NCBI GenBank assembly: GCA_963813715.1
Contig: CAWFAK010000005.1
Span: 1,376,001-1,440,000 of the forward strand
Source of the DNA: an uncultured Planctomycetaceae bacterium
GTDB lineage: Bacteria > Planctomycetota > Planctomycetia > Planctomycetales > Planctomycetaceae
Direction of reading: 5' to 3'
DNA length: 64,000 nt
Below, one piece after another: positions 999 through 25,428 of the stretch (its first letter is position 1; every line of letters starts with the position of its first letter). Both the position numbers and the translations under genes were made by a program. The notes beneath the pieces are model-generated. The model saw only the letters and a list, made by a program, of their open reading frames with translations. It did not search any database and was not told the origin of the DNA.

Positions 999-3147
999 CT
1001 AGTTCGCCATCGCCAGGCGTTCTTCTTTTTCCGCACGGCGACGGGCGATGACATCGTCCTGCAGGCTGTTGGGGACCTGCTTGTAGCGGAAAAACTCCAT
1101 GCTGAAGGAACCTTTGCCCTGCGTCATCGAACGCAGCTCGTTGGCGTAGTCGAACATCGTGGCCAGCGGGACCTCGGCCAGGATCACGCTGACGGCGTTG
1201 CGGACTTCCGTCTGCGTGATGATGCCCCGCTTGCTGGAGATGTGGCCCGTGACCGGTCCCTGAAATTCCTCGGGGACCTCGACCTCGAGCTTCATGATCG
1301 GCTCCTGCAAGGCGAGCTTGGCCTTCTTGAGCGTGTCCCGCATGCAGTTGAAGCCGCAGATGTTGAACGCCATTTCGGACGAGTCGACGTCGTGGTAGGT
1401 GCCGTCCTGCAGGATGGCCCGCACGCCGACGACCGGGCATTCGCAGAGCGGACCTTTGTCGAGGGCCCGCTTGAATCCCTCGTCGACCGGCTTGATGTAC
1501 TCCTTCGGAACGCGGCCCTGCGTGACCTCATTGACGAACTCGTACGGCTCGGCGGCGTCATCGGGGAGCGGTTCGATCTGCCCGACTATGTGCGGCGTAC
1601 TGGCCGGAGCCGCCGGTCTGCTTCTTGTGCTTGAAGTTGAACTCGGCGACTTTCGTCGGGCACTCGCGATAGGCGACTTTCGGCTCGCCGATCAGCGTTT
1701 CGCACTTGTATTCGCGGCGAATCCGCTCGACATAGACTTCCAGATGCAGCTGGCCCATGCCGGCGATCAGCGTCTGACCGGATTCCTGATCGGTCATCAC
1801 GCGGAAGGTGGGATCCTCACGGCGGAAACGCTCGAGGGCCTTCGACAGCCGGTCGGCGCCGTCGCGCTTCAAAGGTTCAATCGACAGGCGGATGACGGGC
1901 TCGGGCACGAAGATGCTCTCCAGAGCCACATCGACGCCCGGGCCGCAGAACGTATCGCCCGAGGCGCAGTCGACGCCGACGACGGCGACGATGTCGCCCG
2001 CTTCGGCCACGTCCACGTCCTCGCGCTGGTCGGCGTGCATCCGGACCAGCCGTCCGAACCGCATTTTCTTGCCGGTGCGCTGGTTAGTGTAGCTTTCGCC
2101 CTTCTGAATCTTGCCCTGGTAAACGCGGAAATAGGTCAGCTGTCCGAACGTCTCGACGACGGTTTTGAACGCCATGGCCACGAGCGGATCGTCGGGCGAA
2201 CTGGTCAGTGGCTTCTTCACTGACTTGGCTCCGTGAGCCGTCGAAACGGCTGCTTCGCCGGCTTCGGGCTTGGCCGTGAGGTCGATCGCTTCGATCTTGC
2301 GGTCCTGCGGGTTGGGCAAGTAGGCGATCACCGCGTCGAGCAGTTCCTGCACGCCCTTGTTGCGGAAGGCCGTGCCCATCATCACGGGAGTTAGCTCTTG
2401 CGAGAGAGTGGCTTCGCGAATGATTGGACGAATTTCGGCGGTGGTGACCGGCCGTTCTTCCAACAGGGCGACCATCAGGTCGTCGCTGTACAGCGACAGC
2501 GTTTCCAACATGTGGGCCCGGGCTTTGGCCGCTTCCTCGGCGTACTCCGCCGGAATCGCTTCGCGGCGGATATCTTCGCCCTGCTCGCCGTCGAAATAGA
2601 CGGCCTGCATCTCGACCAGGTCGATGACGCCGGCAAACTGCGAGCTGAGGCCCATGGGGATCTGCAGCGCGAGGGGCGTTACGCCGAGCTTCTTTTGAAT
2701 TTGATCGATGACCGATGCCGGGTTGGCACCAATGCGGTCCACCTTGTTGATGAAAGCGATGCGGGGGACGCCGTACCGCTTCATCTGGCGATCGACGGTG
2801 AGCGACTGGCTCTGCACACCACCGACGGCGCACAGCACGAGTACAGCGCCGTCGAGAACCCGCAGGCTGCGCTCGACCTCGACCGTGAAGTCGACGTGGC
2901 CAGGCGTATCGATGACGTTAATCGAGTGGTCTTCCCATTCGACCTGGGTCGAGGCGGAGGTAATGGTAATTCCCCGCTCGCGCTCGAGGTCCATGTAGTC
3001 CATGGTCGCGCCGCCGTCGCCTCCCTTGACCTCCTGCATCCGATGGATCCGGCCGCAGTAGTAGAGAATCCGCTCCGTCAGGGTGGTCTTCCCCGAGTCG
3101 ATATGGGCGGAGATTCCGATGTTGCGATGGTGATCTAGGCTTTTCAT
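999..3147 (-). CDS. fusA: Elongation factor G (spdEFG1/mtEFG1-like paralog), one frameshift near 1595
   Basis: [49 protein letters not shown] and C-terminal [15 protein letters not shown]. ORFs 1558..3156 and 999..1424 join after removing one extra base. Confidence 0.95.
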
Positions 3148-4611: not shown

Positions 4612-5061
4612 TTACTGCTTCGCTAATGGCTTGGTTTGCCCGGTGCCTGACTTGATCAGCGCCGTTCGCGTCCGCAAGCGGGGCGGCGCCAGGATCAATG
4701 TCAACACGACCAACGCACCAAACGCGCTATAGATCCACGTAAAAACCACAGGCTCCGCGCGATAGAACAGGACCTGATGCACCCACCTGGCGATGAAGTC
4801 GCCTTGTTCCACGGATTGTCCCGCCTGTTCCCGCAACCAGTTTTCCCAGGTCGTCAGCGGGCAGACGATGCCTGACCACGACTCGAACACGACCACGCCG
4901 ATCGCTGCGAGGTGGAGCAGGCGAAAGGTCCGATTACGAACCCAGTCCCACTTGAACAGGATGCCGAGCAGCACCGCCAGTTCGCCTAGGATCACGAAGG
5001 CGACGTAGCCAACGTGCAGCACCACGACCAAGTCGGCCAGGGCGACGTACAGAGACTCCAT
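4612..5061 (-). CDS. DUF2784-family membrane protein
   Basis: LADLVVVLH...FRLLHLAAI...CPLTTWENWLR...FIARW pattern. Confidence 0.8.
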   Translation of the reverse strand: MESLYVALADLVVVLHVGYVAFVILGELAVLLGILFKWDWVRNRTFRLLHLAAIGVVVFESWSGIVCPLTTWENWLREQAGQSVEQGDFIARWVHQVLFYRAEPVVFTWIYSAFGALVVLTLILAPPRLRTRTALIKSGTGQTKPLAKQ

Positions 5062-6177: not shown

Positions 6178-6489
6178 TAGGCCCAGACCGCGCAGAATCG
6201 GTGCCAGAGTTCTGATGCCAGAGTCCTTTGCTCTTCATGGAGGCGACTCCGAAGTTGCCGTACAGCACGGCGAAACGGACACGCTTGGAATACCGACAGT
6301 GGACAATGCAAACCTGGTGCCGCTTCGCCCAATCGTCGACGCGCCTGCGCTGCATCGTTTGCCGGCTCAAGTGCTTAGGCTCGGGTACCAGTTTGCCCGA
6401 TCGCGGGCGTGCTGAATTTATTGTGGGCAGATCCGCCACGACCGTAGGCAGAATTCGTGAGAAAAGATTCGCAGCGACAGGCACACTTT

Positions 6490-12695: not shown

Positions 12696-13074
12696 CCCAG
12701 GCGAGGTTCGACTGGCCCGGTTGAATCGGTCCGCCCTAGCCGTGCGACTATTCCGGTGTTGCTTGCCGGGCGTGCTGCCCGTGCTTTCCACCCGAGGCCC
12801 TTGCTGGCCCCACTGCTGCGCCCCTTCGCTTCCGAGGGTTTTGCGCACCTTTGCGGCCTGATTGCTCCCGTCCGCAAGGTCGCTACTGGCGGAAACCGAC
12901 GCCCGTGTTGCCCGTGTTGATTTTCCGCAACTGTTTCGCTTTTTCCGCGCCCTGCGGAATCGTGAGCTACGTTTTTCTTGTCAAAGCGGCCGGAAAGGGC
13001 CGGCGCCGCGCCTCGCGCGCGACTGCGGGGCCCGCAGGCATCGAATCGCATCGAAACAGGGAGTAAGGGATCCG

Positions 13075-14406
13075 ATGGTCAACGCCAAGTTCGTTCCGCC
13101 TCGTCCGGGCCGTCCCACCGCCGAGCAAGGACAGACCGATTTCGACGAGTTGAAGCGGCTGATCCACGGCAAGCTGGTCGACAAACTCGATCTGACCCGC
13201 CTGGGTGATCTCGAAGGCGACACGCTGCGGCGCGAGATCCGTCTCGTCGTCGAGCACTTGTGCGATACCGAAAATCCGCTGCTCAACCGCTCCGAGCGCG
13301 AAAAACTCATCGAGGAAGTGCTCGACGAGACGTTCGGCTTCGGGCCGCTCGAGGCGCTGCTCAAGGAAGACGGCGTCGCCGATATCATGATCAACGGCCC
13401 CAAGAACATCTTCTTGGAAAAGAACGGCCGGATTCAGCGCTCGAAGATCACGTTCCGCGATAACGAACACCTGATGCAGATCCTGGACCGCATCGTGTCC
13501 AAGGTCGGTCGGCGTATCGACGAAACGTCTCCGATGTGCGACGCCCGTCTTCCGGACGGCTCCCGTGTCAATGCGATCATTCCTCCGCTGGCCCTCGACG
13601 GCCCGGCCATCACCATCCGGCGCTTCGGCGCCAATCCGCTCACGCTCGAGGACCTGTTGCGGTTCGGTGCCTTTACGCCCGAGATGGTCATGCTCCTGGA
13701 AGGAGCGATGAAGGCCCGGCTCAACATGATCGTGAGCGGAGGTACCGGTTCCGGTAAAACGACGCTGCTCAACACGCTGTCGAGCTTCATCCAGGCCGAC
13801 CACCGAGTCATCACGATCGAGGACGCGGCCGAACTTCAGCTCCAGCAGGAACACGTCCTGCGTCTCGAAACGCGGCCGGCCAACATCGAAGGCAAGGGCC
13901 GCATCAACGCGACCGACCTCGTGCGTAACGCCCTGCGTATGCGGCCCGACCGGATCATCATCGGCGAGTGCCGTGGTCCGGAAGCGCTCGACATGCTTCA
14001 GGCCATGAACACCGGCCACGAAGGTTCGCTGACCACGATTCACGCCAACGCCCCGCGCGACGCCGTCTCCCGTCTGGAGACGATGATCAACATGGGCGGC
14101 ATCGATATTCCGCTGAAAGCCCTGCGGCACCAGTTCGCCTCGGCCGTCGACCTGATCGTGCAAGCCAACCGTTTGCAGGGGGGCCCGCGAAAGGTCACCC
14201 ACATCACGGAAGTGCTCAACATGGAGCAGGACACCGTGATCATGCAGGACATCTTCCTGTTCGTGCAGGACGGCATCGACGAGCAGGGACGCGCGTTTGG
14301 GCACTTCACTTCGACCGGCGTGCGTCCGGCGTTTATGTCTCGCCTCGAATCGGCCGGCGTCCGGTTGCCCGCCAACCTGTTCGCCGCCCGTCAACTGGGC
14401 CGCTAG
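13075..14406 (+). CDS. cpaF: Tad pilus assembly ATPase CpaF/TadA
   Basis: [39 protein letters not shown]. Confidence 0.95.
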
Positions 14407-14485
14407 TCACACGAAGAGATCTGCCAGTCCATTTCGAGCAATTTGAGTACGCCGCGGGCCGCCGCCAGCCGCTGGGAACGCTGTC

Positions 14486-15451
14486 ATGAGTCCAATGATT
14501 ATTTCGCTTGCCGCGTTCTTCGCCGCCACGATGCTCATCGTCGGCGTCGCCGCCTTGATGGGCATGTTCAACACGTCCAAGGCGGAAGACCGCCTGGCGG
14601 TGATGACCGGCCGCAAGAAGGAGCTGGAGTCCGAGGGCATCGTCAAGGAAGAACTGTTCCGCGAGGGAAGAGCGGGCGTCGCCGGCATGCTGAGCGGCCT
14701 GGGCAAACGGCTTGAAGGGATGAGCCGCCTCTTCCAACAGGCGGACTGTCCCCTGAAGCCGGAAGTGTTCTTCGGAGTCATGGGACTCTGCGGGTGCCTG
14801 GGCTTTGCCGCCATGGCCATTACGCACGCCGCGCTGCCGTTGCTACCCGCCGGGGCCCTGATGGGTGCCTCGTTGCCGTTAGTCTGGCTGTTGTGGCGGC
14901 GGAAGCGGCGGTTTAAGAAATTTGGCAAGCAGCTGCCGGACGCCCTCGAACTGATCGCGCGAGCCTTGCGGTCGGGCCACAGTCTGGCCTCCGGCTTGCA
15001 CGTCGTCGTGGAAGAAATGCCGGCTCCCATTTCGACGGAGTTCGGCCAGGCATACGAGGAACAGAACCTGGGCGTGCCGCTCGAGCAGTCGCTCAAGAAC
15101 ATCCTCGTCCGCATGCCCAACATGGACCTCAAGTTCTTCGTCACCGCGGTGGCCATTCAAAAGCAGGCCGGCGGCGACATGGCCGAAATCCTCGACAAGA
15201 TCGGCTACATCATCCGCGAACGCTTCAAAATCATGGGCCAGGTGCAAGCTCTCACGGGCGAAGGCCGAATCAGCGGCGTCGTGCTGATGGCCTTGCCGAT
15301 CGCCCTCTTCTTCGCCGTCTACTACCTCAATCCGACCTACATCATGCTCCTGTTCACCGAGGAACTGGGCCGCAAGATGATCGCCGTCGCGGTGGTCTTG
15401 CAGATTCTCGGCGCGATCACGATCAAGAAAATCGTCAACATCAAGATCTGA
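14486..15451 (+). CDS. tadB: Tad pilus inner-membrane protein TadB
   Basis: QLPDALELIARALRSGHSL, GGDMAEIL; follows cpaF. Confidence 0.92.
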   Translation: MSPMIISLAAFFAATMLIVGVAALMGMFNTSKAEDRLAVMTGRKKELESEGIVKEELFREGRAGVAGMLSGLGKRLEGMSRLFQQADCPLKPEVFFGVMGLCGCLGFAAMAITHAALPLLPAGALMGASLPLVWLLWRRKRRFKKFGKQLPDALELIARALRSGHSLASGLHVVVEEMPAPISTEFGQAYEEQNLGVPLEQSLKNILVRMPNMDLKFFVTAVAIQKQAGGDMAEILDKIGYIIRERFKIMGQVQALTGEGRISGVVLMALPIALFFAVYYLNPTYIMLLFTEELGRKMIAVAVVLQILGAITIKKIVNIKI

Positions 15452-15497
15452 CGACGGTATCAAGATTCTCACGGCATGGCCGCAGGATGGATCTGTC

Positions 15498-16436
15498 ATG
15501 GACTTAACGAACCTTTTGCCTTGGGCCATTTTCGGCGTCATCACGTTCGGCGTGTGGGCGCTGATCAACGTCTTCTCGTCGCGATCCAGCCGGGCGATCG
15601 AGCGGCTCGAAGAGCTGCGCGATCCGACGCTGCGAAACCGCGAAGGCGGCGGTTCCGGCAAAACCGGCATGGGCGCCGTCGTTGAAATGGCCGCCCCCGC
15701 CCTGTCGAAAGCTCTGCAACCCAAGACCGAGCTCGAGCAAAGCGAACTCAAAAAGCGGATGGCCAACGCCGGCTACAACGCCCCCGGCGCTGCCCAGCTC
15801 TTCCTGGCGATCAAGTTCGCCATGATGATCGGCGGCTGCTTGCTGGGAAGCGGCTTCGGCCTCGTGCACTGGGGGATGACGCAGAAGGGCTGGACCTCGA
15901 TCATCGTCGGGGCCGGCATCGGCTTCTATCTGCCTGAACTGGTGCTCGCTTTGATGAAGCGGTCGCGGCAGGAGAAAATCTTCCTGCAGCTGCCGGATAC
16001 CCTGGACCTCTTGGTCGTCTGCGTGGAAGCCGGCTTGGGTCTCGACGCGGGCATGCGTCGCGTTTGCGACGAGCTGGTCGATTCGGCCCCGGAGCTCACG
16101 TCCGAATTCAACATGGCCAACAAGCAACTGCAAATGGGACGTCCCCGCCGCGAGGTCTTGCATGACCTGGGCGTGCGGACGGGCGTCGACGACATGCGGG
16201 CCCTGGCCGCCATTTTGATTCAGGCCGACAAGTTCGGCTCCTCGATCGCCCAGGCCCTCCGCGTCCAGTCCGACAGCATGCGAGTCAAACGCCGCCAGAT
16301 CGCCGAAGAGCGAGCCCAGCAAACGGCCGTGAAGATGATCTTCCCGCTGGTGCTCTTCATCTTCCCGGGCATCTTCGTGGTGCTGGTCGGCCCGGCCGCC
16401 ATCTCCATGATCAACGGCCTGCTCAAGAACGGCTGA
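15498..16436 (+). CDS. tadC: Tad pilus inner-membrane protein TadC
   Basis: LPDTLDLLVVCVEAGLGLD, KMIFPLVLFIFP. Confidence 0.92.
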   Translation: MDLTNLLPWAIFGVITFGVWALINVFSSRSSRAIERLEELRDPTLRNREGGGSGKTGMGAVVEMAAPALSKALQPKTELEQSELKKRMANAGYNAPGAAQLFLAIKFAMMIGGCLLGSGFGLVHWGMTQKGWTSIIVGAGIGFYLPELVLALMKRSRQEKIFLQLPDTLDLLVVCVEAGLGLDAGMRRVCDELVDSAPELTSEFNMANKQLQMGRPRREVLHDLGVRTGVDDMRALAAILIQADKFGSSIAQALRVQSDSMRVKRRQIAEERAQQTAVKMIFPLVLFIFPGIFVVLVGPAAISMINGLLKNG

Positions 16437-16490: not shown

Positions 16491-16550
16491 GATCCCGTCC
16501 CGACCGCCTATTGCGTGCGCGGCTCCTTGATTCTGACGAACTCACTCTTC

Positions 16551-16615
16551 CCCCCTCGCCCCTTGCGGGAGAGGGGTCGGCCTGCGACGAGCTCAGTCGA
16601 GCCGGGGTGAGGGGC
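16551..16615. repeat. REP-like palindromic element (CCCCTC...GAGGGG type)
   Basis: CCCCCTCGCCCCTTGCGGGAGAGGGG...GGGGTGAGGGGC, a nested inverted repeat. Confidence 0.6.
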
Positions 16616-16674
16616 CCCTTTTCGATCCCGTCCCAATCGACGCGTCCCGTCCGGTTCGCGTCCCGTCCCGTGTC

Positions 16675-16758
16675 CACCACGAAGGCACAAAGGACCAAGG
16701 AATTCGAATCTGCTGACTTAGGATCTTGCTTCGTGCCTTCGTGTCTTTGTGGTGAAAA
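16675..16758. repeat. Inverted-repeat element (CACCACGAAGGCACAAAG...CTTCGTGCCTTCGTGTCTTTGTGGTG)
   Basis: Imperfect long inverted repeat in the intergenic region. Confidence 0.55.
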
Positions 16759-17047
16759 TCTCCGTGAGCTTGTCATCCCGCCTCACAGATTGTGACCGGA
16801 CCGGACCGGACCCGATCCCGTCGCGTCTCTCTCTATCTCTGACCTTGGACCTTGGACTTACTCGAGTCCCGTCCCGTCTAGCAGAGCAGTCCGGACCCGG
16901 ACCCCTGCTCGCGAAAGTGTCCGGACCGGACCTTTTGACCGGTCCCGTCCCCAGTTGGCGTGTCCCGACCGAGAGGTCGCGGATCAAATTCGCCGGGATT
17001 CGCTCGGTAAAACAACGTGTCCCGGGCTTTGCACAATGGAACGCATT

Positions 17048-18331
17048 TTAGCCGATCTGTTGTGCAATTCTCAGATTCGTTGTGCAGACCGGGGCGGCGG
17101 CGAAATCGGGCTGAATCCCAAGCTCGTGCATCGCTCCGATCAGCACGCAAAGGTTGTGACAGAGGATTTTGCAGAGCACTTCGTTCTTCATCGCCAGCTT
17201 GGTCCGGCTGCGAACGGCGTCCCCGAACTTGGTTTTGATCGACATGAAACAGGCTTCGATGTTAGACCGCTTGTGGTAATGCCGCAGGAACTCCTCCCGG
17301 TGCAGGCTGAAGTAGTGGAACGCCTTGGCGTAGAGCCCGCCGACCGCCCCGGTCGTGCCGGCCCGGAACGGGATGTACGCGGTCGCCTTGTGTTTCGCAA
17401 TCGCTTCAAAATTGGCCGTACTGGCGTACTGTCGGTCTGCTGAAACTTCCGACACGTCGAAGTTCTTCGCGGTCTCGTCCAAGAGCGCGGGCAAGAGCGG
17501 ACTGTCGTTCGTGCAGCGCTCGTGAATCTCGACGGCGGTCACGACGTGGTCGTGCAGCCGATCATCACGTGGGTTTTTACCCAGTCGGTTTCCTTCCGCT
17601 CGCCACCGCACGGGCCGTACTTGTGGTCGTACCAGCGATGGAATCGGCTGGCCGTGAATCCCGTTGAATCTGCGGCGAAATCGCTCTCAATCGCGGTAAG
17701 CGGCAGGCTGGCTTTGACGATCAACTCGCGCAAGAACGTCCGTCATGCGTTCATCGTCAAGGCGATTGAAGATCGAGTTGAAGTGCGGGACGCAGCCGAT
17801 GTGCCCCTTGGCGTGGCATCCGCAGGTCCGACATGAACCGCCGGCCGCTCAGCGTGGAGAACACCTTGAAGCAGACCGCGAACACGGCGTCACGCATCGG
17901 GATGCGGCGCTGTCCGCGCCCTCTTGCGATTCCTCTTCGATCCCTTCACACAACGCAGCCAAGAGCGATTGGAACGTATCCTTCTCGCTGGTCTGGGCGC
18001 GGTTGTACGCGGGCCACTGCTGCGGATAGCTCTTGCGGACGATCTTCTCTTCGACGGTCACGCTTTCCGTGATCGTCTCGCTTCCGTCCGCGAACAATTC
18101 CCTTTGTCGCACGATCCGAACGGCCAAGATGTGTTTGCAGGTACAGCCGCGTAACTCGAAATCGGGGCAAGTGCAGTGAGGCGACTGGTCGTCAGGATCG
18201 ACCTTGTACCGCTTCTCACCCGGCAACGATTGAGACGAGACGTACCATTGGTTCCCGATCTGCACGATCTTCTGCGTTGCCGCCAAGATCAGTGCGCGAT
18301 TCTCGCGATCCAGCAACTTCCAATCGGTCAT
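17048..18331 (-). pseudogene. Transposase with N-terminal SWIM zinc finger and IS4/IS5-type DDE domain; 4 or more frameshifts (decay or sequencing error)
   Basis: CTCPDFELRGCTCKH (SWIM), AADSTGF (D1), SADRQY (D2), YHKRSNIEACFMSIK (Y-x2-R-x3-E-x6-K). Split over ORFs 17849..18331, 17539..17733 and 17048..17611. Confidence 0.88.
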
Positions 18332-18377
18332 GGCCGCTTCCCCTACAGGATGCGGCGCGACGGGTTAAAATGTCCGA

Positions 18378-18448
18378 CAAGGGGCATTCGGGCCGTTCAC
18401 GCCTGAGTGCTTCGGCCCGTCGTAGCTCGAACTACGGCGGGCTTTTTT
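18378..18448 (+). ncRNA. Candidate ~70-nt two-hairpin RNA antisense to the transposase leader
   Basis: TAAAAT at 18366-18371. Hairpin GGGGCATTCGGGC/GCCTGAGTGCTTC (18381-18413, G-U pairs work on the + strand). Hairpin GCCCGTCGTAG/CTACGGCGGGC followed by T6. Confidence 0.5.
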
Positions 18449-18477
18449 GTTCCCGGTTCTAAAATGAACCAGTCGGT

Positions 18478-18527
18478 TTGACACCGTTACTATCCGTCAC
18501 TATACTACACTATCCGATGCTAGTCAA
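18478..18527. promoter_or_regulatory. Overlapping divergent sigma70 promoters for the ATPase (+) and transposase (-)
   Basis: + strand TTGACA(18478)-17 nt-TATACT(18501). - strand TTGACT(18527)-17 nt-TATAGT(18504). ACTATCCG occurs twice within. Confidence 0.75.
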
Positions 18528-18553
18528 CTCTAATTGCTCTGGAGGGCGAGGGC

Positions 18554-19807
18554 ATGCCTCTTTCCAAATCCGACTTGCAAACCAAGGCGCTTCAGCTCGG
18601 GCAGATTTTCAAACCGGCATCGCCAATCGATCAGGAGGATCTGTTTTGCGGGCGGCAAACCCAGATCCGCAACGTCGTAGACGCGATCAACCAGACCGGT
18701 CAGCACGTAATCATGTACGGCGAGCGGGGCGTGGGGAAAACTTCGCTGGCCAACGTGCTGGTATCGAAGCTTCGCGCTGGCAACCGCGTGATCGTGGCTC
18801 CGCACGTCAACTGCGACAACGGCGATGACTATGCCTCGATTTGGAGAAAGGTGTTCTCGGAAATCACTGTTATCTCGGAGAAGCGGTCGCCGGGATTTGT
18901 GGCCAAGATCGAGAAAACGGTGGGCTGTCTAGCGGATCAAATCAAGGGGCACATCACCCCGGATTCCGTCAGGAAGCTCCTAACGAGTGTCGGCGAGAAC
19001 TCCATGCTTCTCGTAATTCTCGACGAGTTCGACAAAATTCCGAAAAAAAATGTTCGCAGTCTGGTCGCAGACACCATTAAGGTGCTGTCGGACCGCGCTA
19101 CTCCGTCAACGATTGTCGTAGTCGGGTTTGCTGACGACGTTAACGGACTGATCGAAGAACACCAATCGATTGAACGGTGCCTAGTCCAGGTTCCAATGCC
19201 GCGCATGTCTCCAGTGGAACTCGAAATGATTGTAACCAACGGCCTCAAGCGCGTCGGCATGACGATCGACCAGGATGCCCTTCAGGAAATCTCGGGACTC
19301 TCTAAAGGGCTGCCTCACTACACCCATCTAATCAGCCTGCATTGCGCAAGGCGAGCGCTCGATTCCGGAACGCTGGCGATCACACCCGACCATGTAAAGG
19401 CCGCGGTTCGCGAGGCGATCACGGAGACGCAGCAGACCATTAAAAGCACGTATAACGAAGCAACTCTGAGCACGAAGAAAAATGCCCTATATCGGCAAGT
19501 GCTTCTTGCCTGCGCGATGACTGACGCGGACGACTTTGGCTACTTCGCTCCGATCGACGTGCGTGAACCGCTTAGTCGGGTGTTGAAAAAACCCTCAAAG
19601 ATTGAGGCGTTCGCAAAACACCTGCATGCGTTTTGCGAGGACAAACGCGGACCCGTGCTAAAAAAGATGCCGGATCGATCCAGGTTCCGTTTCATGAACC
19701 CACTCATGCAGCCTTTCATTCTGATGAAGGGGCTAAAGGACGATCTTGTGACCGAAGACGATTTGGGCCTGAAGCGTGATCCAAAGGCGGAAGGCAAATT
19801 GTTTTAG
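18554..19807 (+). CDS. AAA+ ATPase, Orc1/Cdc6-like (possible C-terminal winged helix), transposon passenger
   Basis: LFCGRQTQI, GERGVGKTS (Walker A), VILDEFD (Walker B), SIER, GLPHY. Confidence 0.85.
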   Translation: MPLSKSDLQTKALQLGQIFKPASPIDQEDLFCGRQTQIRNVVDAINQTGQHVIMYGERGVGKTSLANVLVSKLRAGNRVIVAPHVNCDNGDDYASIWRKVFSEITVISEKRSPGFVAKIEKTVGCLADQIKGHITPDSVRKLLTSVGENSMLLVILDEFDKIPKKNVRSLVADTIKVLSDRATPSTIVVVGFADDVNGLIEEHQSIERCLVQVPMPRMSPVELEMIVTNGLKRVGMTIDQDALQEISGLSKGLPHYTHLISLHCARRALDSGTLAITPDHVKAAVREAITETQQTIKSTYNEATLSTKKNALYRQVLLACAMTDADDFGYFAPIDVREPLSRVLKKPSKIEAFAKHLHAFCEDKRGPVLKKMPDRSRFRFMNPLMQPFILMKGLKDDLVTEDDLGLKRDPKAEGKLF

Positions 19808-19838
19808 CCGCCCGGAAGCGGCAAGGGAGCATGCGGGC

Positions 19839-20291
19839 ATGATCGAAAAGCAGCTTTTGACGGCGGTCATCGTCCCCGTCGGGATTTTGGTCGTCACCGT
19901 CGTCTGCAAGTGCCTCATCCGAATGAGTTGGCCCAGGCTGACGGATTTTTACATGGGAATCGACGCGATGATGGCCGCCATCGCGTCGGGACTGATTTAC
20001 TTGTGCGATCTGGGCTATCAATATCGCGACGCAAAAAAAACCGTCGACCCAAAGGACAGGGCCGACCAGCTGGATCTCATTGCAAAGCACGCCTTCTACG
20101 GGATCGGATACTGTGTTGCCGTTGCGGTTTTTCTGTTCTTTTTGTTGCTTTTTCACCAGCGTTACGAAGCCCTAAAATTGCAGGGGAAAACGCCTAAATT
20201 CTGGAGTTGGATGAATTTTCTTATCTTGGTGATCTGCAATGGGATAGGCTTTGGTTGGCTGTTCGCAATCGTGTACTTTATCACCGGCTGA
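19839..20291 (+). CDS. Four-TM hypothetical membrane protein, transposon passenger
   Basis: Four hydrophobic segments; starts 31 nt after the ATPase stop; visibly AT-richer codons than host genes. Confidence 0.75.
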   Translation: MIEKQLLTAVIVPVGILVVTVVCKCLIRMSWPRLTDFYMGIDAMMAAIASGLIYLCDLGYQYRDAKKTVDPKDRADQLDLIAKHAFYGIGYCVAVAVFLFFLLLFHQRYEALKLQGKTPKFWSWMNFLILVICNGIGFGWLFAIVYFITG

Positions 20292-20360
20292 GCTTGACAG
20301 TCCGATATAATGATTGCCGAGTCATTCCCATTCAGTCCGCCAACTCGCGGGCATTTCCTT

Positions 20361-20585
20361 ATGACCCAAAACGCAGAATCCACCAAGACGCGAACCGCGG
20401 AAGTGATCGCATGTACCGCTGCCGCGAGCGGCGTTGCGCTCGGAATTGCGTCGGCAGTTACCGTTTCGATTCCACTGGTTGCCGCCGCCGCTGGCCTCGG
20501 TCTTATTGGCGTCGCCGGCGAGTACTACGCTCAGCGCACGCCTGCAGGCACAGCGGTCCAGTCGGAGGGCAAGCCGCGCTCTTGA
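20361..20585 (+). CDS. Small Ala/Gly-rich membrane peptide (74 aa), transposon passenger
   Basis: MTQNAESTKT...GVALGIASAVTVSIPLVAAAAGLGLIGVAG; followed by a terminator. Confidence 0.55.
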   Translation: MTQNAESTKTRTAEVIACTAAASGVALGIASAVTVSIPLVAAAAGLGLIGVAGEYYAQRTPAGTAVQSEGKPRS

Positions 20586-20605
20586 GTCGCGGAAGATCGA
20601 TGCAT

Positions 20606-20634
20606 GACCGCTCCGCTAGGGGCGGTTTTTTTTT
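20606..20634 (+). terminator. Intrinsic terminator
   Basis: ACCGCTCC-GCTA-GGGGCGG followed by T9. Confidence 0.75.
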
Positions 20635-20672
20635 GCGCCGCCCACGTCCCCCTCTCCCGGTACAATCGCGGC

Positions 20673-21413
20673 ATGAGCCGTAAACGCCGCTTGGTCCGAG
20701 TTGCGGTTTGCGCAGCCGTGCTGATCGCCTACGTGGGCGGATACTTCGTCTGGCCTCACGGTGAATTAGCTACCTTCGGGGATTTCTATCGCAGCTTCCC
20801 CTTGGAAGGACTCAACCGGCTCTACGTTCCGCTGGGCTGGCTAGAGTGCAAGATACGGGGGCGCACGGTAACCCTAAGCGGTCCGACCCCAGGTCACGGC
20901 ATCCAGTTCGATCCGGGCACTCTGGTAATTCGCGCTCGTTCCGTTGTGCAGCCGGGCGTTCTGTTGTGCAGAACCGTCCCGTTGTGCAAAGCCACGTGTC
21001 CCGTCCCGTTCTTGTCCTCTCCCGGGGCGCCGCGACCCTTCCCCTCGGTGTTTCCCCCTAGCTGCTGGTGGGGATCTTTTTCTCCCTTATGTGAAAACGG
21101 ATCCCCACCCCCAGCAGGGACAGTTTTTGATCACCCGCGAGGATTCTCCCGTCACCGCGCCGCCGCGATCGCGCAGGTGTCCGGACCGGACTTCGGGAAC
21201 CACCCAGCCCCAGAACCGGATGCCGAACTTGGTCTCACTGGGTGTCCAGGGGGCCTGCGCGGTGAACTGGGGCTCCGCGCCGTCTCGGCGCGGCACCTAA
21301 ACCGCTCGCGCGATCCCGCTCTTTCCATTCAGCCACAAAACCGCGATCCGTCCAAGATCAGTTTTCGCGGAATTCAGGATCGGCTACGCCACAGCTCGGC
21401 GCGGAGCGTTTGA
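20673..21413 (+). CDS. Small single-TM protein whose frame runs out through the right TIR (true 3' end uncertain)
   Basis: MSRKRRLVRVAVCAAVLIAYVGGYFVW...LYVPLGWLE. TACAAT lies 6 nt before the ATG. No stop inside the element. Confidence 0.5.
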   Translation: MSRKRRLVRVAVCAAVLIAYVGGYFVWPHGELATFGDFYRSFPLEGLNRLYVPLGWLECKIRGRTVTLSGPTPGHGIQFDPGTLVIRARSVVQPGVLLCRTVPLCKATCPVPFLSSPGAPRPFPSVFPPSCWWGSFSPLCENGSPPPAGTVFDHPRGFSRHRAAAIAQVSGPDFGNHPAPEPDAELGLTGCPGGLRGELGLRAVSARHLNRSRDPALSIQPQNRDPSKISFRGIQDRLRHSSARSV

Positions 21414-21469: not shown

Positions 21470-22120
21470 TTACTTTGACGCATTCTTCGCCACGATTCGA
21501 TGCGCGACGCACGCGACGTCGTCGCATCGGTCAATCGCCCGCTCGACAAGCTCGTAAAGCTCCTTCCACTTGATCACATCGAAGGCGTCGAGGCGGCCGT
21601 CGAACAGCTGCGTCAGAACCCGATGATGGATGGCGTCGCCCTCTTCCTCGGCGTGATGCGTCACGATCACCAACTGGTCGACGGACATGGCGAGTTTCGC
21701 GGACTTACGGTCCTCGATGTGCCGGATACACATGACGGCATCGGAAGCAAGGCGGCTGGCTTTCACGAGAACGGCGCACTGCCGCACGAATTCGTCCTCA
21801 CTTCTCGCGACTTTGTAAAAGATCATTCGTCGACCGACGGCGTCGATGTCATCGACCACGTCGTCGATTCGCGAAACCAGGTCGTAGACGTCTCCGCGAT
21901 CAGCAGGCGAAAAGTTGCTCCGGGCGAGTCGAGCGAATGTTTCCCGCGCGAGTTCGTCGCCGTCGTGTTCAGCTTGGATGATGGCGGTGACCAGCTCACT
22001 GGTGATGAGGTCTGCGGAGCACGCTAAGTCCGCAAGCAGCTCGGCTGAGCGCACGGCGTTTTGCGCCGCACGCTCGAAGGCATCGCAATAGTCGAGGTAG
22101 TTAGGCAGCAAGCGAAACAT
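21470..22120 (-). CDS. DUF47 / PhoU-like phosphate transport regulator
   Basis: EHDGD...IDDVVD...EEEGDAIH...IKWKELYELVERAIDRCDDVA. Confidence 0.88.
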   Translation of the reverse strand: MFRLLPNYLDYCDAFERAAQNAVRSAELLADLACSADLITSELVTAIIQAEHDGDELARETFARLARSNFSPADRGDVYDLVSRIDDVVDDIDAVGRRMIFYKVARSEDEFVRQCAVLVKASRLASDAVMCIRHIEDRKSAKLAMSVDQLVIVTHHAEEEGDAIHHRVLTQLFDGRLDAFDVIKWKELYELVERAIDRCDDVACVAHRIVAKNASK

Positions 22121-22145
22121 GCGTTGCCTCGAAACTGGGCGTCAC

Positions 22146-25100
22146 TCAACCAGGGATTGGCGGCCGCGCCTCCTCCAACTTGTTCGGCACCACAAGCGAG
22201 TAGACGCACGGCACCACGAACAGCGTCGTCACCAGACCCGCGATCAGGCCGCCGAGGACCGCGCGGCCCAAGGGGACGTTCGCTTCGCTGCCGCGGCTCA
22301 GACCCAGCGACATCGGGATCAGGGCGAAGAACGTCGCCAGCGCCGTCATGACCACCGGCCGCACCCGGACCGAGGCGGCGCCGTCGATCGCCTCGAGCGG
22401 AGTCACCCGGTCCGCCTGCCGCACGTTCTCGGCGAAGTCGATCAGCAGCACCGTGTTCGACACCACGATGCCCACCATGAAGATGACGCCCAGCAGCGAC
22501 TGGACGTTCAAGGCCGTTCCGGTGAAGAACAGCATCAAGATGACGCCGACCACGCCGACCGGCACGGCCGACAGCACCACCAGCGGCGTCAGGTACGACC
22601 GGAACAGGGCGACCATCAGGAAGTAGATCAGCAGAACCGCCCCGACCATGCCCATCGCCTGGAATCGGAACGTCTGCTGCATCTTCTGATACTCGCCGGC
22701 CAGGACGATCCGGGCCCCTTCCATCGGCTTCTGTCCGGGCGCGTCGGGATCGAAGGGCGTCCAGCCGCCGTCGGGCCGCTCCTTGCCGAACTTCGCCACG
22801 ACCCGGCTCACGTCCTCGGCCACGTGCCCGAGGTCGCGGCCGTGCACCCCCATCGTCAGATCCATCGTCGCCTGAAGGTTGGTGTGGTTGATCTCGGCCG
22901 GCACTTCGACTCGCGGCAGTGGACTTCACGATGTTCCGCAGCGGGATCGGCTTCTGCTGCCCGGGCCGGTGATCGGGATGTCGAGCAGGGTATCGACGCG
23001 AGGTGATGTCTTCTTCGGGGTACTGCACGCCGACGAAGTACTGGTTGGAGCTCTTCGGGTCGATCCAGAAGTTCTTCTTGTTGAACTGAACGCTGGAGTT
23101 GAACGCCGACACGACGTTCTGCATCATGTCCGCCTGAGTCGAGCCCGAGGTCGGACGCCTTGGCCTGGTCGATTTCCAGGACGTACTGCGGGTAGTCGAG
23201 GCGCTGGATGATGCGGGCGTCCACGACGCCGTCGATCCGCTTCACTTCCTTCAGAATTCGCTCGGCCACCTTGCGGGCCTTGTTCATGTCCTTGCCCGTG
23301 ATGCGGACGTTGATCGGAGTGGACTTGCCCTCGTTCATGGCCGACCGGACCATGCCGCCGGCGTCGAAGGCGAATTCCAGGTCGGAGAACTGCGGATCGG
23401 CCGCGAATCCCTGCCGCAAGCATGTCGACGTACTCCTGGGCCGACTGCGACCGCTCGGTCTTGAGTTGAACCTTCACGACCGCGTCCATCGGCCCGGCGT
23501 TCGGCGTGAAGGCGGCCGACCAGTTCGGCGTCAGCCCGATCTCGCTGATGACCAGTTCCAGGTCGTCGCCAGTCTTCTCCTTCACGAATTTCTCCGACGC
23601 GGCGATCTTCTCCTCGGTCTCTTCGATCCGCGTGCCGGACGGGGCCCGGACGAAGATCTCGAACGCGCCGGCATCGACTTCCGGGAAGAACTCCCGGCGC
23701 AGGTCTGGGCCGAAGCACAACGACGACCACGGCCAGGGCCGCGAACGCCGCCGCCGATCACGAAGCCGCGAGCTCGCAGGCCACGTCGAGGAGCCGGAGT
23801 ATAACGCGCGATCCCGGCGATCGACGCGACTTCCCATTTCTCGAACAGCCGGCCGAGCCAGCCCTTTGCGGGGCGTTCTCGTGTTCGTTGCGGTGCTCGT
23901 AGTCGAAGGTGTGGGACTCGACCGGCTTGTGCCCGTGCGACTTCAGCCAGGCCGCACAGCGGGCCGGGACGAACGTCCGCGACAGGACGTAGGCGATCGC
24001 CATGGCGAACGCCACGGCCAGGAACATCGGCCGGAACAGGAACGCCCCGAGCCCGGGCATCAGCGCCAGCGGCAGCAGCACGAGCAGCGTGCAGAGCTGG
24101 CGATCAGTTCGGGCATGGCCACCTCGCTGGCCCCGAGGAAGGCGGCCTCCTTCGGCTTCGCCCCGAGGCCGAGGTGGCGGTGCGTGTTCTCCAGGCAAAT
24201 GATCGCGCTATCCACCAGCGGGCCGATCGCCAGGGCCAGCCCGGCCAGAGTCATCACGTTGATCGTCTGCCCGAAGCCGTACAGGCAGGCGATCGGCCCC
24301 GAGCACGGCAACCGGGATCGTCATCACGGCGATCAGCGTCATCCGCCATTCGCCGAGGAAGACCAGGATCACCAGCGAGCAGAGGATGGCGCCGAGGATG
24401 CCTTCTTCGGCGAGGCTTTCGATCGCCTTGCGGACGTAGACCGACTGGTCCATCACCAGTTTCAGATCGACGTCCGGGGTGGTCAGCCGGTCCTTCATGT
24501 CGGGCAGGTTCTGTCTTGAGAGTGTCGACGACGCTCAGCGTGCTGTACCCCGACTGCCGGTAGACCGGGATGTAGACCTGCCGGCGGCCGTCCACGCGGA
24601 CGACGTTCGTTTGAATCGGGGCGGCGTCCTTCGGGTCGGCCACCTCTTTCAGGAAGATCGTCCGCCCGTCCGCGTCGGTCTTGATCGGGAATGTCGCCCA
24701 TGCGCTCGACGCGCGTCGTACATCGCGTTGGAGTCGAGCGTGTAGTCGAACTTGCCGAACTTCGCGTCGCCGGCCGGGATGAAGATGTTGAACCGGTCCA
24801 GGGCATTCATCACATCGATCGGGGACAGGCCGTGGGCCTGGAGCTCGGTCGCGGTCGAGGTAGGCCAGGATGGTGCGAATCTTCCCGCCGTAGACGACCG
24901 GGGCGTTCGCCCCGCGCGACGCCATGATCATCATCCGGACCTGGTAGCGGGCGGTGTCGTAGAGGACCGATTCGTTCTGCGTCTTGCTGTTGAGGGCGAC
25001 CAGGCAGACCGGCGTGGACGAGGTCGGGTCGTAGGGCAGGATGACCGGCGGCAGCGTTCCCGGGGGCAGGGTCGGGATTTCGACGGTGGCCAGCGAGTTG

Positions 25101-25428
25101 ACCTGGGTCAGGGCGCCGGCCGGATCGACGTCGTCGGCGTAGAAGTTGCGGACGATGCTGACGCCGAGGAGCGACCGCGATTCCTGGCGGATCGATCCCG
25201 GCGGCCTGCCCGGTGCCGCGTTCCATCCGGGCGGTGATGCCGGCCTCGACGCTGGTCGCGGCCATGCCGTTGTAGAAGGTCAGCACCTGGACGGCCGGGC
25301 TGCGGTACACCGGCAGGATGTCGGCCGGGATCACCGCCAGGGCCACGGCCCCGGCCAAGCACGATCGTCAGCATCAGGACAGTGATCGCCCGGGGATTGC
25401 CGAGCGAAAAGCGGATCAGACCATTCAT
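22146..25428 (-). pseudogene. RND efflux permease (AcrB/CzcA-like), heavily frameshifted
   Basis: MNGLIRFSLGNP..., GQTINVMTLAGLALAIGPLVDSAIICLEN, REFFPEVDAG, RVRPVVMTALAT, PLGRAVLGGL, spread over about 10 ORF fragments. Confidence 0.85.

Follow-up and report, generated by a model that had tools for sequence, protein, structure and literature searches.

An ORC/Cdc6-like ATPase gene and a small membrane-protein gene carried as passengers in the variable slot of a planctomycete insertion sequence

A stretch of 64,000 nucleotides from an uncultured Planctomycetaceae bacterium (contig CAWFAK010000005.1, positions 1,376,001 to 1,440,000; hereafter the window) was analyzed with respect to two adjacent genes, one encoding an AAA+ ATPase of the ORC/Cdc6-STAND lineage (18554–19807, plus strand; ATG start, 417 amino acids (aa)) and the other a small helical membrane protein of a rare unnamed family (19839–20291, plus strand; 150 aa). 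Both are passenger genes of an insertion sequence (IS) of 3,969 bp (17025–20993) of the SWIM+DDE type, which is inserted in a REP-like repeat. The first-pass annotation of this DNA had presented them as a cargo pair that might act either as a defense module or as a transposition helper. Our analysis shows that their families are unrelated and were not associated at any other locus we examined. With moderate confidence, we consider them to be independent accessory genes, probably directed against phages or other mobile elements, that were stacked in the cargo slot of the IS; each is a plausible defense candidate, and together they do not form a conserved two-part system.

The ends of the IS are well delimited. 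Terminal inverted repeats of 19 nt (17025–17043, plus strand, starting with GGCTTTGCACAA; 20975–20993, minus strand; 89% complementary) are directly bordered by a 10-bp target-site duplication, ACGTGTCCCG (17015–17024 and 20994–21003). The left terminus recurs in a second copy of the IS, located on contig C17 of the same genome (G000), and in sister ISs, and three subterminal direct repeats at the right end (20937–20989, plus strand; CGTTC[CT]GTTGTGCA) have the same architecture as those at the ends of sister ISs. Empty sites were also found: in each of the 12 uninterrupted host repeats inspected, the sequence is AACGTGTCCCG followed by TCCCG and the 10 bp occur only once. The 15-nt target motif is present 66 times in the genome, and the three IS ends found in G000 (those of the window copy, of the C17 copy, and a third right end abutting the same motif on contig C4) all adjoin AACGTGTCCCG followed by TCCC, which indicates that insertion is sequence-specific.

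The transposase gene of the window copy (17048–18331, minus strand) is a pseudogene whose fragments match, in Pfam, an N-terminal SWIM zinc finger and DDE_Tnp_1, an IS4/IS5-like combination. It is 86% identical at the nucleotide level to an intact gene encoding 428 aa on C17 (G000:C17:678454–679740), relative to which it has four frame-breaking indels, near 17918 (−1), 17818 (−2), 17731 (+1), and 17556 (−1). The transposase of the window copy is thus dead and its cargo intact. The product of the C17 gene scored 70.5 bits with DDE_Tnp_1 (cut-off 23) and 26.5 bits with SWIM, but its 106.6 bits with the NCBIfam IS5_2 model (NF033579) fell under the cut-off of 140; the element is therefore described as IS4/IS5-like, without assignment to a named family. 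This transposase was found in 6 of the 12 genomes of the genus, and in a sample of 400 genomes of the phylum a single further genome gave a match, which was partial. As far as searched, the SWIM+DDE IS family is thus limited to one planctomycete genus.

Comparison between copies revealed a constant backbone, consisting of the left end and the transposase together with a right end of about 60 nt carrying the subterminal repeats, and between these parts a slot of about 2–2.5 kb whose content differs from copy to copy. Homology of the backbone to the genus copies covers 17100–18452 and ends near 18452. The C17 copy, which has the same target motif on both flanks, is 87% identical to the window copy over the left end and the transposase; the similarity breaks off some 10 nt upstream of the start of the transposase gene, returning for the last 60 nt or so only, and the C17 slot contains unrelated, partly decayed small open reading frames (ORFs). 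The inverted repeats, the 10-bp duplication, the empty sites, and this second copy with unrelated cargo bear out the earlier description of the two window genes as cargo.

The regions upstream of the transposase start in the genus copies were then surveyed, and 12 distinct slot contents were recognized, two of which are the ATPase and membrane genes of the window and the small ORFs of C17. In G408, the slot encodes AbiLi (4.2e-91) and AbiLii/RloB (2.6e-19; Pfam RloB 101.6 bits). In G407, a RosmerTA-like gene matching RmrA (2.6e-35) lies next to a gene for a 218-aa protein, in a copy for which the slot boundary is not proven. A further slot of G408 (L145, G408:C1:546900–550520, positions 1769–3018) contains a distant Cdc6-like ATPase of 325 aa, which shares 23% identity (E 6e-6) and the order of motifs with the window ATPase, followed by a 91-aa ORF. 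By eye, this ORF resembles a winged helix and occupies the place of the fused C-terminal winged helix of the window protein. Another content is an uncharacterized protein of 439 aa, and six other slots gave no PADLOC matches. Identity between the two copies that carry the 439-aa gene (L143 and L144) is 99.88% and sets in precisely at the terminal repeat, outside which the flanks are unrelated; this shows that the element transposes with its cargo. The two AbiL copies in G408 were also considered as evidence for transposition and were set aside, as their identity extends beyond the IS ends and may reflect a larger duplication. A search of the 11 other genomes of the genus did not recover the cargo DNA of the window itself.

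Within the window, the backbone ends with a terminator-like hairpin (18414–18443, plus strand; 12-bp stem followed by a T-run), and the cargo operon has a near-consensus sigma-70 promoter (18478–18506, plus strand; TTGACA-17-TATACT, 11/12 in a consensus scan). The membrane ORF spans 19776 (GTG) to 20291, and its likelier start is the ATG at 19839, which lies 31 nt past the ATPase stop and is preceded by an AAGGGAG ribosome-binding site; this 150-aa form is also that found in the protein collection. A 74-aa ORF whose product has, by hydropathy, a single strongly hydrophobic segment rich in glycine (20361–20585, plus strand) is the last before a second terminator-like hairpin that closes the operon (20606–20627, plus strand; 9-bp stem followed by T9), and it had no family match below 0.001 in the family-library searches. 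Given its position between the membrane gene and this hairpin, the slot holds a predicted self-contained transcription unit made up of the promoter, the ATPase, the membrane protein, the small ORF, and the terminator. A 206-nt contig from an RNA library covers 20254–20459 without differences, bridging the membrane gene and the 74-aa ORF, and a contig from an RNA library of another study matches 18924–19175; such matches do not themselves show transcription. The read search returned short contigs only, and the stretches that they do not cover carry no meaning. On the opposite strand, a promoter-like site (18499–18527; TTGACT-17-TATAGT, 10/12) overlaps the cargo promoter and faces the transposase; it belongs to the cargo part, outside the conserved IS backbone.

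The base composition sets the cargo apart from the host. GC content is 0.52–0.56 over 18500–20499 versus mostly 0.58–0.69 in the flanks (500-nt windows, most of them at least 0.60), and GC content at third codon positions (GC3) is 0.66 for the ATPase gene, 0.68 for the membrane gene, and 0.64–0.68 for the cargo genes overall, which is lower than the 0.82–0.85 of three upstream host genes. A foreign composition is thus common to the cargo genes. These results agree with the first-pass annotation, which had reported the near-consensus promoter, genes richer in AT than those of the host, and the absence of frameshifts in the cargo beside a broken transposase.

The ATPase passes the gathering score of Pfam nSTAND1 (PF20703; 52.9 bits against 27.1, residues 26–321) and the Pfam cut-offs of AAA_22, AAA_16, and AAA. 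With the NCBIfam Orc1/Cdc6 model (TIGR02928), it scored 35 bits over residues 30–197 only, far under the cut-off of 181.3. The protein can be divided into an NTPase domain, a helical lid, a winged helix, and a conserved C-terminal tail ending in GKLF. Among 22 aligned homologs, the Walker A (GERGVGKTS) and Walker B (LDEFD) motifs are invariant, and so is a G-L-P sequence of the helical domain (positions 252–254), which resembles the GLPL motif of NB-ARC proteins. The AlphaFold2 model obtained with these 22 homologs has a predicted local distance difference test (pLDDT) value of 85.8 and consists of an AAA+ core, a helical lid, and a C-terminal winged helix. The best Foldseek matches of the model were the archaeal Orc1/Cdc6 structures 1w5t, 1fnn, and 2qby, followed by the archaeal ATPases SSO1545 and PAB2304, and further matches included subunits of ORC, RuvB, and STAND proteins. 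The ATPase is thus predicted to have an Orc1/Cdc6-type fold, and the earlier description of an intact Orc1/Cdc6-like ATPase is confirmed by the ORF, the invariant Walker motifs, and this modeled fold. A profile search of solved structures returned matches at the level of the P-loop only.

Structural likeness to the archaeal proteins (1w5t, 1fnn, 2qby, 2fna, and 2qen, with the ATPase_2 members SSO1545 and PAB2304 among them) extends to the order of the three domains, with Foldseek E-values of 1e-9 to 8e-12. However, the window protein differs from archaeal Orc1/Cdc6 in that it is only 13–16% identical to these proteins, with TM-scores of only 0.43–0.48, and in that it is bacterial and borne by a mobile element. 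The other group that it resembles is that of the STAND conflict NTPases (nSTAND1; Avs/NLR-like), with which it shares the nSTAND1 score, the succession of NTPase, helical, and winged-helix domains, and the G-L-P motif. It differs from them by its size (about 417 aa only) and by having neither an N-terminal effector nor a C-terminal repeat sensor. One study describes nSTAND1 as a clade from conflict systems (PMC8195603), and a preprint gives the tripartite STAND architecture as effector, NTPase, and repeat sensor (bioRxiv 10.64898/2026.10.19.760177), an architecture that is absent from the window ATPase.

Relatives of the ATPase are widespread. At least 4,483 protein clusters of the 8,000 candidates scored were relatives, the closest of which, apart from the protein itself, are 88% and 73% identical, all others being at most 58% identical. 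In species-representative genomes, relatives are encoded at 521 or more of the 600 pattern hits, and the analysis retained 79 loci. The ATPase is almost always a stand-alone protein of about 420 aa; the search for longer forms gave just two, both of them without additional Pfam labels, and counts as weak evidence according to the warning of the tool itself. The window genome carries a single copy. A tree of 75 rows, from which five loci without an intact or full ORF were left out, largely follows the phyla, and the window protein falls in a Planctomycetota clade of 10 rows. A scan of metagenome contigs with the ATPase gave distant relatives only and did not recover the contigs encoding the two closest proteins (88% and 73% identical). 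Our literature search, limited in reach, retrieved no description of the ATPase family, of the SWIM+DDE IS family, or of the membrane family.

An all-against-all comparison of the ORFs within 3 kb of the ATPase at the 79 loci revealed no general partner gene. The two largest clusters of neighbors, each present at 12 loci, were a divergent upstream protein of about 280 aa and a downstream basic protein of about 80 aa. The former matches the NCBIfam IS1 transposase model under its cut-off (2.7e-15), and the latter has a conserved GGLKGGKARA..LS...R..IA.KAA..RW motif. Together with the ATPase, they constitute a three-gene IS1-like element, with the transposase on one strand and the ATPase on the other, followed by the basic protein, which occurs in at least six phyla (L016, L040, L041, L048, L049, L052, L070, L071, L079, L082, and L085). 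Complete GGTAGTG..TCAGTTTGA terminal repeat pairs surround all three genes at nine loci, 8-bp target duplications are visible at seven (L040, L041, L048, L070, L071, L079, and L085), and at another locus, L051, the small ORF and a remnant of the right end are all that is left.

Other types of mobile element also carry the ATPase. The family matches phrog_6841 at 1.1e-46, and a relative is encoded by gene 34 of Gordonia phage Cashline and by gene 30 of Mycobacterium phage Kevin1 (cluster N). In either phage, the gene lies between the integrase/immunity genes and another block, the tail genes in Cashline and the lysis cassette in Kevin1. Kevin1 gene 30 is 37% identical to the window ATPase, lies in the central variable region of the phage beside a HicB-like antitoxin gene, and is oriented as the integrase and repressor genes are. 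Prophages of this cluster are known for their defense biology. The Kevin1 announcement describes gene 30 as an orpham AAA-ATPase belonging to the variable region and connects such regions with prophage-mediated defense (PMC6544188). On the Salinibacter ruber plasmid pSR31 (L106), an ISL3 transposase gene is the divergent neighbor of the ATPase gene, and on a Clavibacter plasmid the genes near a relative include those for Fic, GNAT, and DUF4238 proteins. The ATPase family is therefore recurrently resident on IS elements, phages, and plasmids. With regard to plasmids, we also observed that a 22-nt inverted repeat in pSR31 (4654–4675 and 6281–6302; 86% complementary) brackets the ATPase gene alone, and that many Yersinia pestis plasmid records contain distant relatives (27.6% identity, with 73% of the query covered) bearing the annotation 'AAA family ATPase', Yersinia accounting for 63 of the 80 records among the plasmid matches listed.

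The membrane protein has a quite different distribution. Its model (pLDDT 90) shows four long helices; three segments pass a Kyte-Doolittle value of 1.6 and the second helix is amphipathic, so that the protein would have three to four transmembrane (TM) helices. The earlier description of a closely linked four-TM protein thus holds for the linkage and for the four modeled helices, but the number of TM helices has to be widened to three or four. A word-based search returned the protein itself alone; this was misleading, as a full HMMER scan of 1.84 billion representatives gave 35 further relatives (E ≤ 1e-3) of about 130–230 aa that align from end to end, the best being 47% identical. Conserved positions of the family include a DFYLG-like motif, HQ, and N..G. 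The protein has a weak PHROG match (phrog_25392 at 8e-5), whereas Foldseek found no match for the model in the PDB at E ≤ 0.001 and only unnamed clusters in the ESM Atlas. Members were detected in 3 of the 401 genomes of the phylum sample (the 400 genomes and G000), the window genome included, and in a viral-contig scan that yielded one locus. In G128, the gene lies beside a helix-turn-helix gene, a weak SecB-like gene, and a TIR-pentapeptide gene. On the IMG/VR contig, it has a toxin-antitoxin-like pair on one side and an IS1595-like transposase on the other, both recognized by eye, and lies near a terminase-like ORF. The ATPase is absent from both. The match in G027 is partial and lies at a contig end, so that only two of the three other contexts are informative.

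These distributions separate the two genes. A hidden Markov model of the membrane family had no match among the ORFs of the 79 ATPase loci, the copy in the window being the only one in its genome, and none of the three other membrane-family loci (the two informative contexts and the partial one) has the ATPase. The pairing of an ATPase sensor with a membrane effector, which had been put forward as a recurring anti-phage architecture, is therefore not supported here as a conserved pair. The first-pass annotation had looked to co-occurrence to distinguish a defense role, by association with the membrane gene, from a helper role, by association with a transposase. The former association was seen at none of these loci, and the latter was seen in part, since among the 75 loci with a callable ATPase ORF only 16 have a mobile-element gene as immediate neighbor (including, besides the IS1-like transposases, an IS1595 transposase located upstream in the same orientation in L035 and four integrase-type genes), and the other 59 have no transposase or integrase there.

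The content of the sister slots provides the argument in favor of defense. AbiL and RosmerTA are defense systems, and the presence of AbiL and of an RmrA-type gene in the same slot of related copies makes a defense reading of the window cargo plausible. The earlier suggestion of a defense module survives to this extent, but not as a match to a described system: PADLOC-DB v2.0.0 gave no convincing match for either protein, the best hit of the ATPase being mad8 (2.1e-5, 22 bits, partial) and the membrane protein having none. If the two genes are independent accessory genes, the cargo would have been retained for a benefit to the host or to the element, most likely through an anti-phage or anti-mobile-element function. 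The ATPase may act as an ATP-driven switch of the ORC/Cdc6-STAND type that binds DNA or the replisome. Solo action is proposed because the many solo, phage, and plasmid copies of the ATPase must work alone where they occur. As for the small membrane proteins, they would be accessory genes of their own within the same slot, or at most an ad hoc local effector.

Several observations weigh against this interpretation. Known defense systems match only 2 of the 12 distinct slot contents, and the cargo-side IS end with its terminal motif was not located for six of the fetched copies, so that some of the ORFs listed for sister copies may be host genes. No effector domain is recognizable in the 417 aa of the ATPase with Pfam. 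Many homologs sit between housekeeping genes, most immediate neighbors are ordinary metabolic genes or genes of unknown function, and only 7 of the 145 immediate neighbors at the 75 loci match PADLOC at E ≤ 1e-8, most of these being generic by our reading (methyltransferase, kinase, cyclase, NYN). Moreover, the ATPase tree tracks the phyla and includes one Dehalococcoidia clade with kept synteny, which makes the family steadier than typical defense genes.

The location among housekeeping genes, the synteny in Dehalococcoidia, and the agreement of the tree with the phyla would also be expected if the ATPase had an accessory or domesticated role outside conflict, as a DNA-binding regulator or as a replication or maintenance factor that hitch-hikes on the IS, the membrane ORFs being incidental. 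The element is single-copy and of low mobility, and the fold is that of a replication initiator, both in keeping with such a role. However, the gene is patchy within the genus and recurs on IS, phage, and plasmid backbones, and its 35 bits against 181.3 place it far under the family cut-off of Orc1/Cdc6. We consider a role outside conflict unlikely.

A role as a transposition accessory ATPase comparable to IstB, TnsC, TniB, or MuB, involved in target choice, immunity, or copy number and usable by several transposase families, was also considered, the first-pass annotation having suggested a TnsC/IstB/MuB-like function in target selection. Like those proteins, the window ATPase is an AAA+ protein encoded inside a transposable element, and there are weak profile matches (phrog_296; a Mu-type 'DNA transposition protein' PHROG at 1.7e-7) and precomputed TniB Pfam labels on some homologs. 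A divergent arrangement of transposase and ATPase is found with the SWIM-DDE transposase of the window, with the IS1-like transposase (12 of 79 loci), and with ISL3, the IS1595 case in L035 being in the same orientation. Loci with the IS1-like context lie on dispersed branches of the ATPase tree, which requires 9 changes (5 or more of them forced), and in the five genomes checked, the close IS1-like transposase (57–100% identity) is single-copy and always beside the single ATPase, whereas more distant IS1-like copies (at most 43% identity) are without it. The resemblance of the ATPase tail to clamp-binding motifs, discussed below, would also fit an accessory function in transposition.

However, the window ATPase differs from IstB, TnsC, TniB, and MuB in being divergent from its transposase, in being dispensable for the sister copies, and in belonging to a family that is mostly without a transposase. 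The C17 copy with its intact transposase and the sister ISs hold other cargo and no such ATPase, and yet the three G000 ends (window, C17, and C4) adjoin the same target motif and sister elements have transposed. The helper model thus fails for the window IS, where the sister copies do without the ATPase. At the level of the family, the 59 loci without an adjacent transposase or integrase have intact ORFs, homologs are found in phage variable regions, and the pairwise identities of the ATPase and the IS1-like transposase are only weakly correlated (Spearman 0.33, from non-independent pairs). As the IS1-like subfamily constantly carries the ATPase, the helper model stays alive for the family as a whole, and overall we give it a rather small chance of being right.

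An obligate two-component defense system, in which the ATPase would sense infection and activate the 4-TM protein as a membrane-disrupting effector, is suggested by the local arrangement (genes 31 nt apart, a ribosome-binding site for the second gene, one promoter and one terminator, similar GC3), by the lack of an effector domain in the ATPase, and by the presence of the membrane family in accessory regions of mobile elements such as those with the TIR-pentapeptide gene and the toxin-antitoxin-like pair, but it is improbable in view of the 79 ATPase loci and the membrane-family contexts in which the partner is missing and of an ATPase family that is overwhelmingly solo.

The C-terminal tail of the ATPase points to a possible site of action. 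In 43 of 195 homologs, including those of the window's subfamily, the protein ends in [QE]xxLF, a sequence that resembles the consensus of peptides that bind the sliding clamp. A more general LF tail was considered as a family-wide feature and dropped, since only 61 of the 195 homologs end in LF. When residues 305–417 were modeled with the DnaN dimer of the same genome, the complex scored 0.56, and the best of three controls scored 0.00; the runs agreed in at least 93% of contacts, and the pLDDT of the partner was at least 74. The mark that this prediction passed is reached by 116 of 157 solved complexes and by 2 of 215 mismatched pairs, but scores of 0.60 or less are held by only 18 of the 157 solved complexes and by both of the passing mismatches. 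Clamp-peptide complexes have already been solved, and the pass may therefore come from likeness to them. The prediction thus lends weak support to docking of the [QE]xxLF tail on DnaN. As a more speculative proposal, which we think has little chance of holding in full, the ATPase would represent a very widespread uncharacterized family of minimal ORC/Cdc6-STAND switches on transposable elements, constant in an IS1-like subfamily, captured by IS5-like elements, found next to an ISL3 transposase, and carried by temperate phages. The window's subfamily would act at the replisome, through its tail on the beta sliding clamp, either as a new single-gene system blocking the replication of invading DNA or as a novel type of controller of target or copy number for ISs with one transposase.

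The reading of the two genes as independent accessory cargo invites comparison with transporter ISs and Tn7-like cargo transposons. Tn7-like elements are reported to be transposons that carry a cargo rich in defense systems (PMC8649781). The window IS resembles these elements in its terminal inverted repeats, target duplication, DDE transposase, and variable cargo, and the likeness extends to the known defense systems (AbiL and RmrA) in the slot of sister copies. It differs from Tn7-like elements by its very small size, by a single transposase with an N-terminal SWIM finger, by one REP-like target motif, by the lack of machinery of the TnsC or TniQ type, and by a slot of only 2–2.5 kb. If this reading is correct, the SWIM+DDE IS would be a compact shuttle with a swappable slot. 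Since AbiL and a RosmerTA-like gene are already present in sister slots, the slot contents of unknown function, the ATPase and the membrane protein included, would constitute a short list of defense candidates. The ATPase family, which has no name and is found on at least three kinds of mobile element, is of wider interest: its function would annotate thousands of genes labeled 'ATP-binding protein' and would settle whether ISs with one transposase can own an AAA+ accessory protein.

Finally, some other features of the region were recorded. Downstream of the cargo terminator, a small ORF with an N-terminal TM segment (20673–20993, plus strand) has its start at a TACAAT-N6-ATG motif and extends across the end of the IS; the reading frame from 20673 continues past the right end into the flanking DNA, up to 21413. 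The motif CCCGGTACAATCGCGGCATGAGC (window 20640–20678) recurs at five other sites of the genome and resembles a −10 box for leaderless mRNA. An element of about 300 bp resembling a miniature inverted-repeat transposable element (L103, G000:C9:18843–19145) has the terminal repeats of the IS (GGCTTTGCACAA...TTTGTGCAAAGCC) and holds the TACAAT-N6-ATG motif followed by an ORF of about 58 aa, and related ends starting with GGCTTTGCACAAAAAC are located at C8:666445, C9:18024, and C16:110694. The IS lies in an intergenic field of short interspersed repeats (16500–17024 and 21061–21400), of which there are dozens of copies genome-wide. Judged by eye from their translations, the genes upstream of this field (12862–16436) look like a Tad/Flp pilus set with a CpaF-like ATPase and TadB/TadC-like proteins, and those downstream on the minus strand (22024–25358) resemble an RND-type transporter that is apparently split over several frames.

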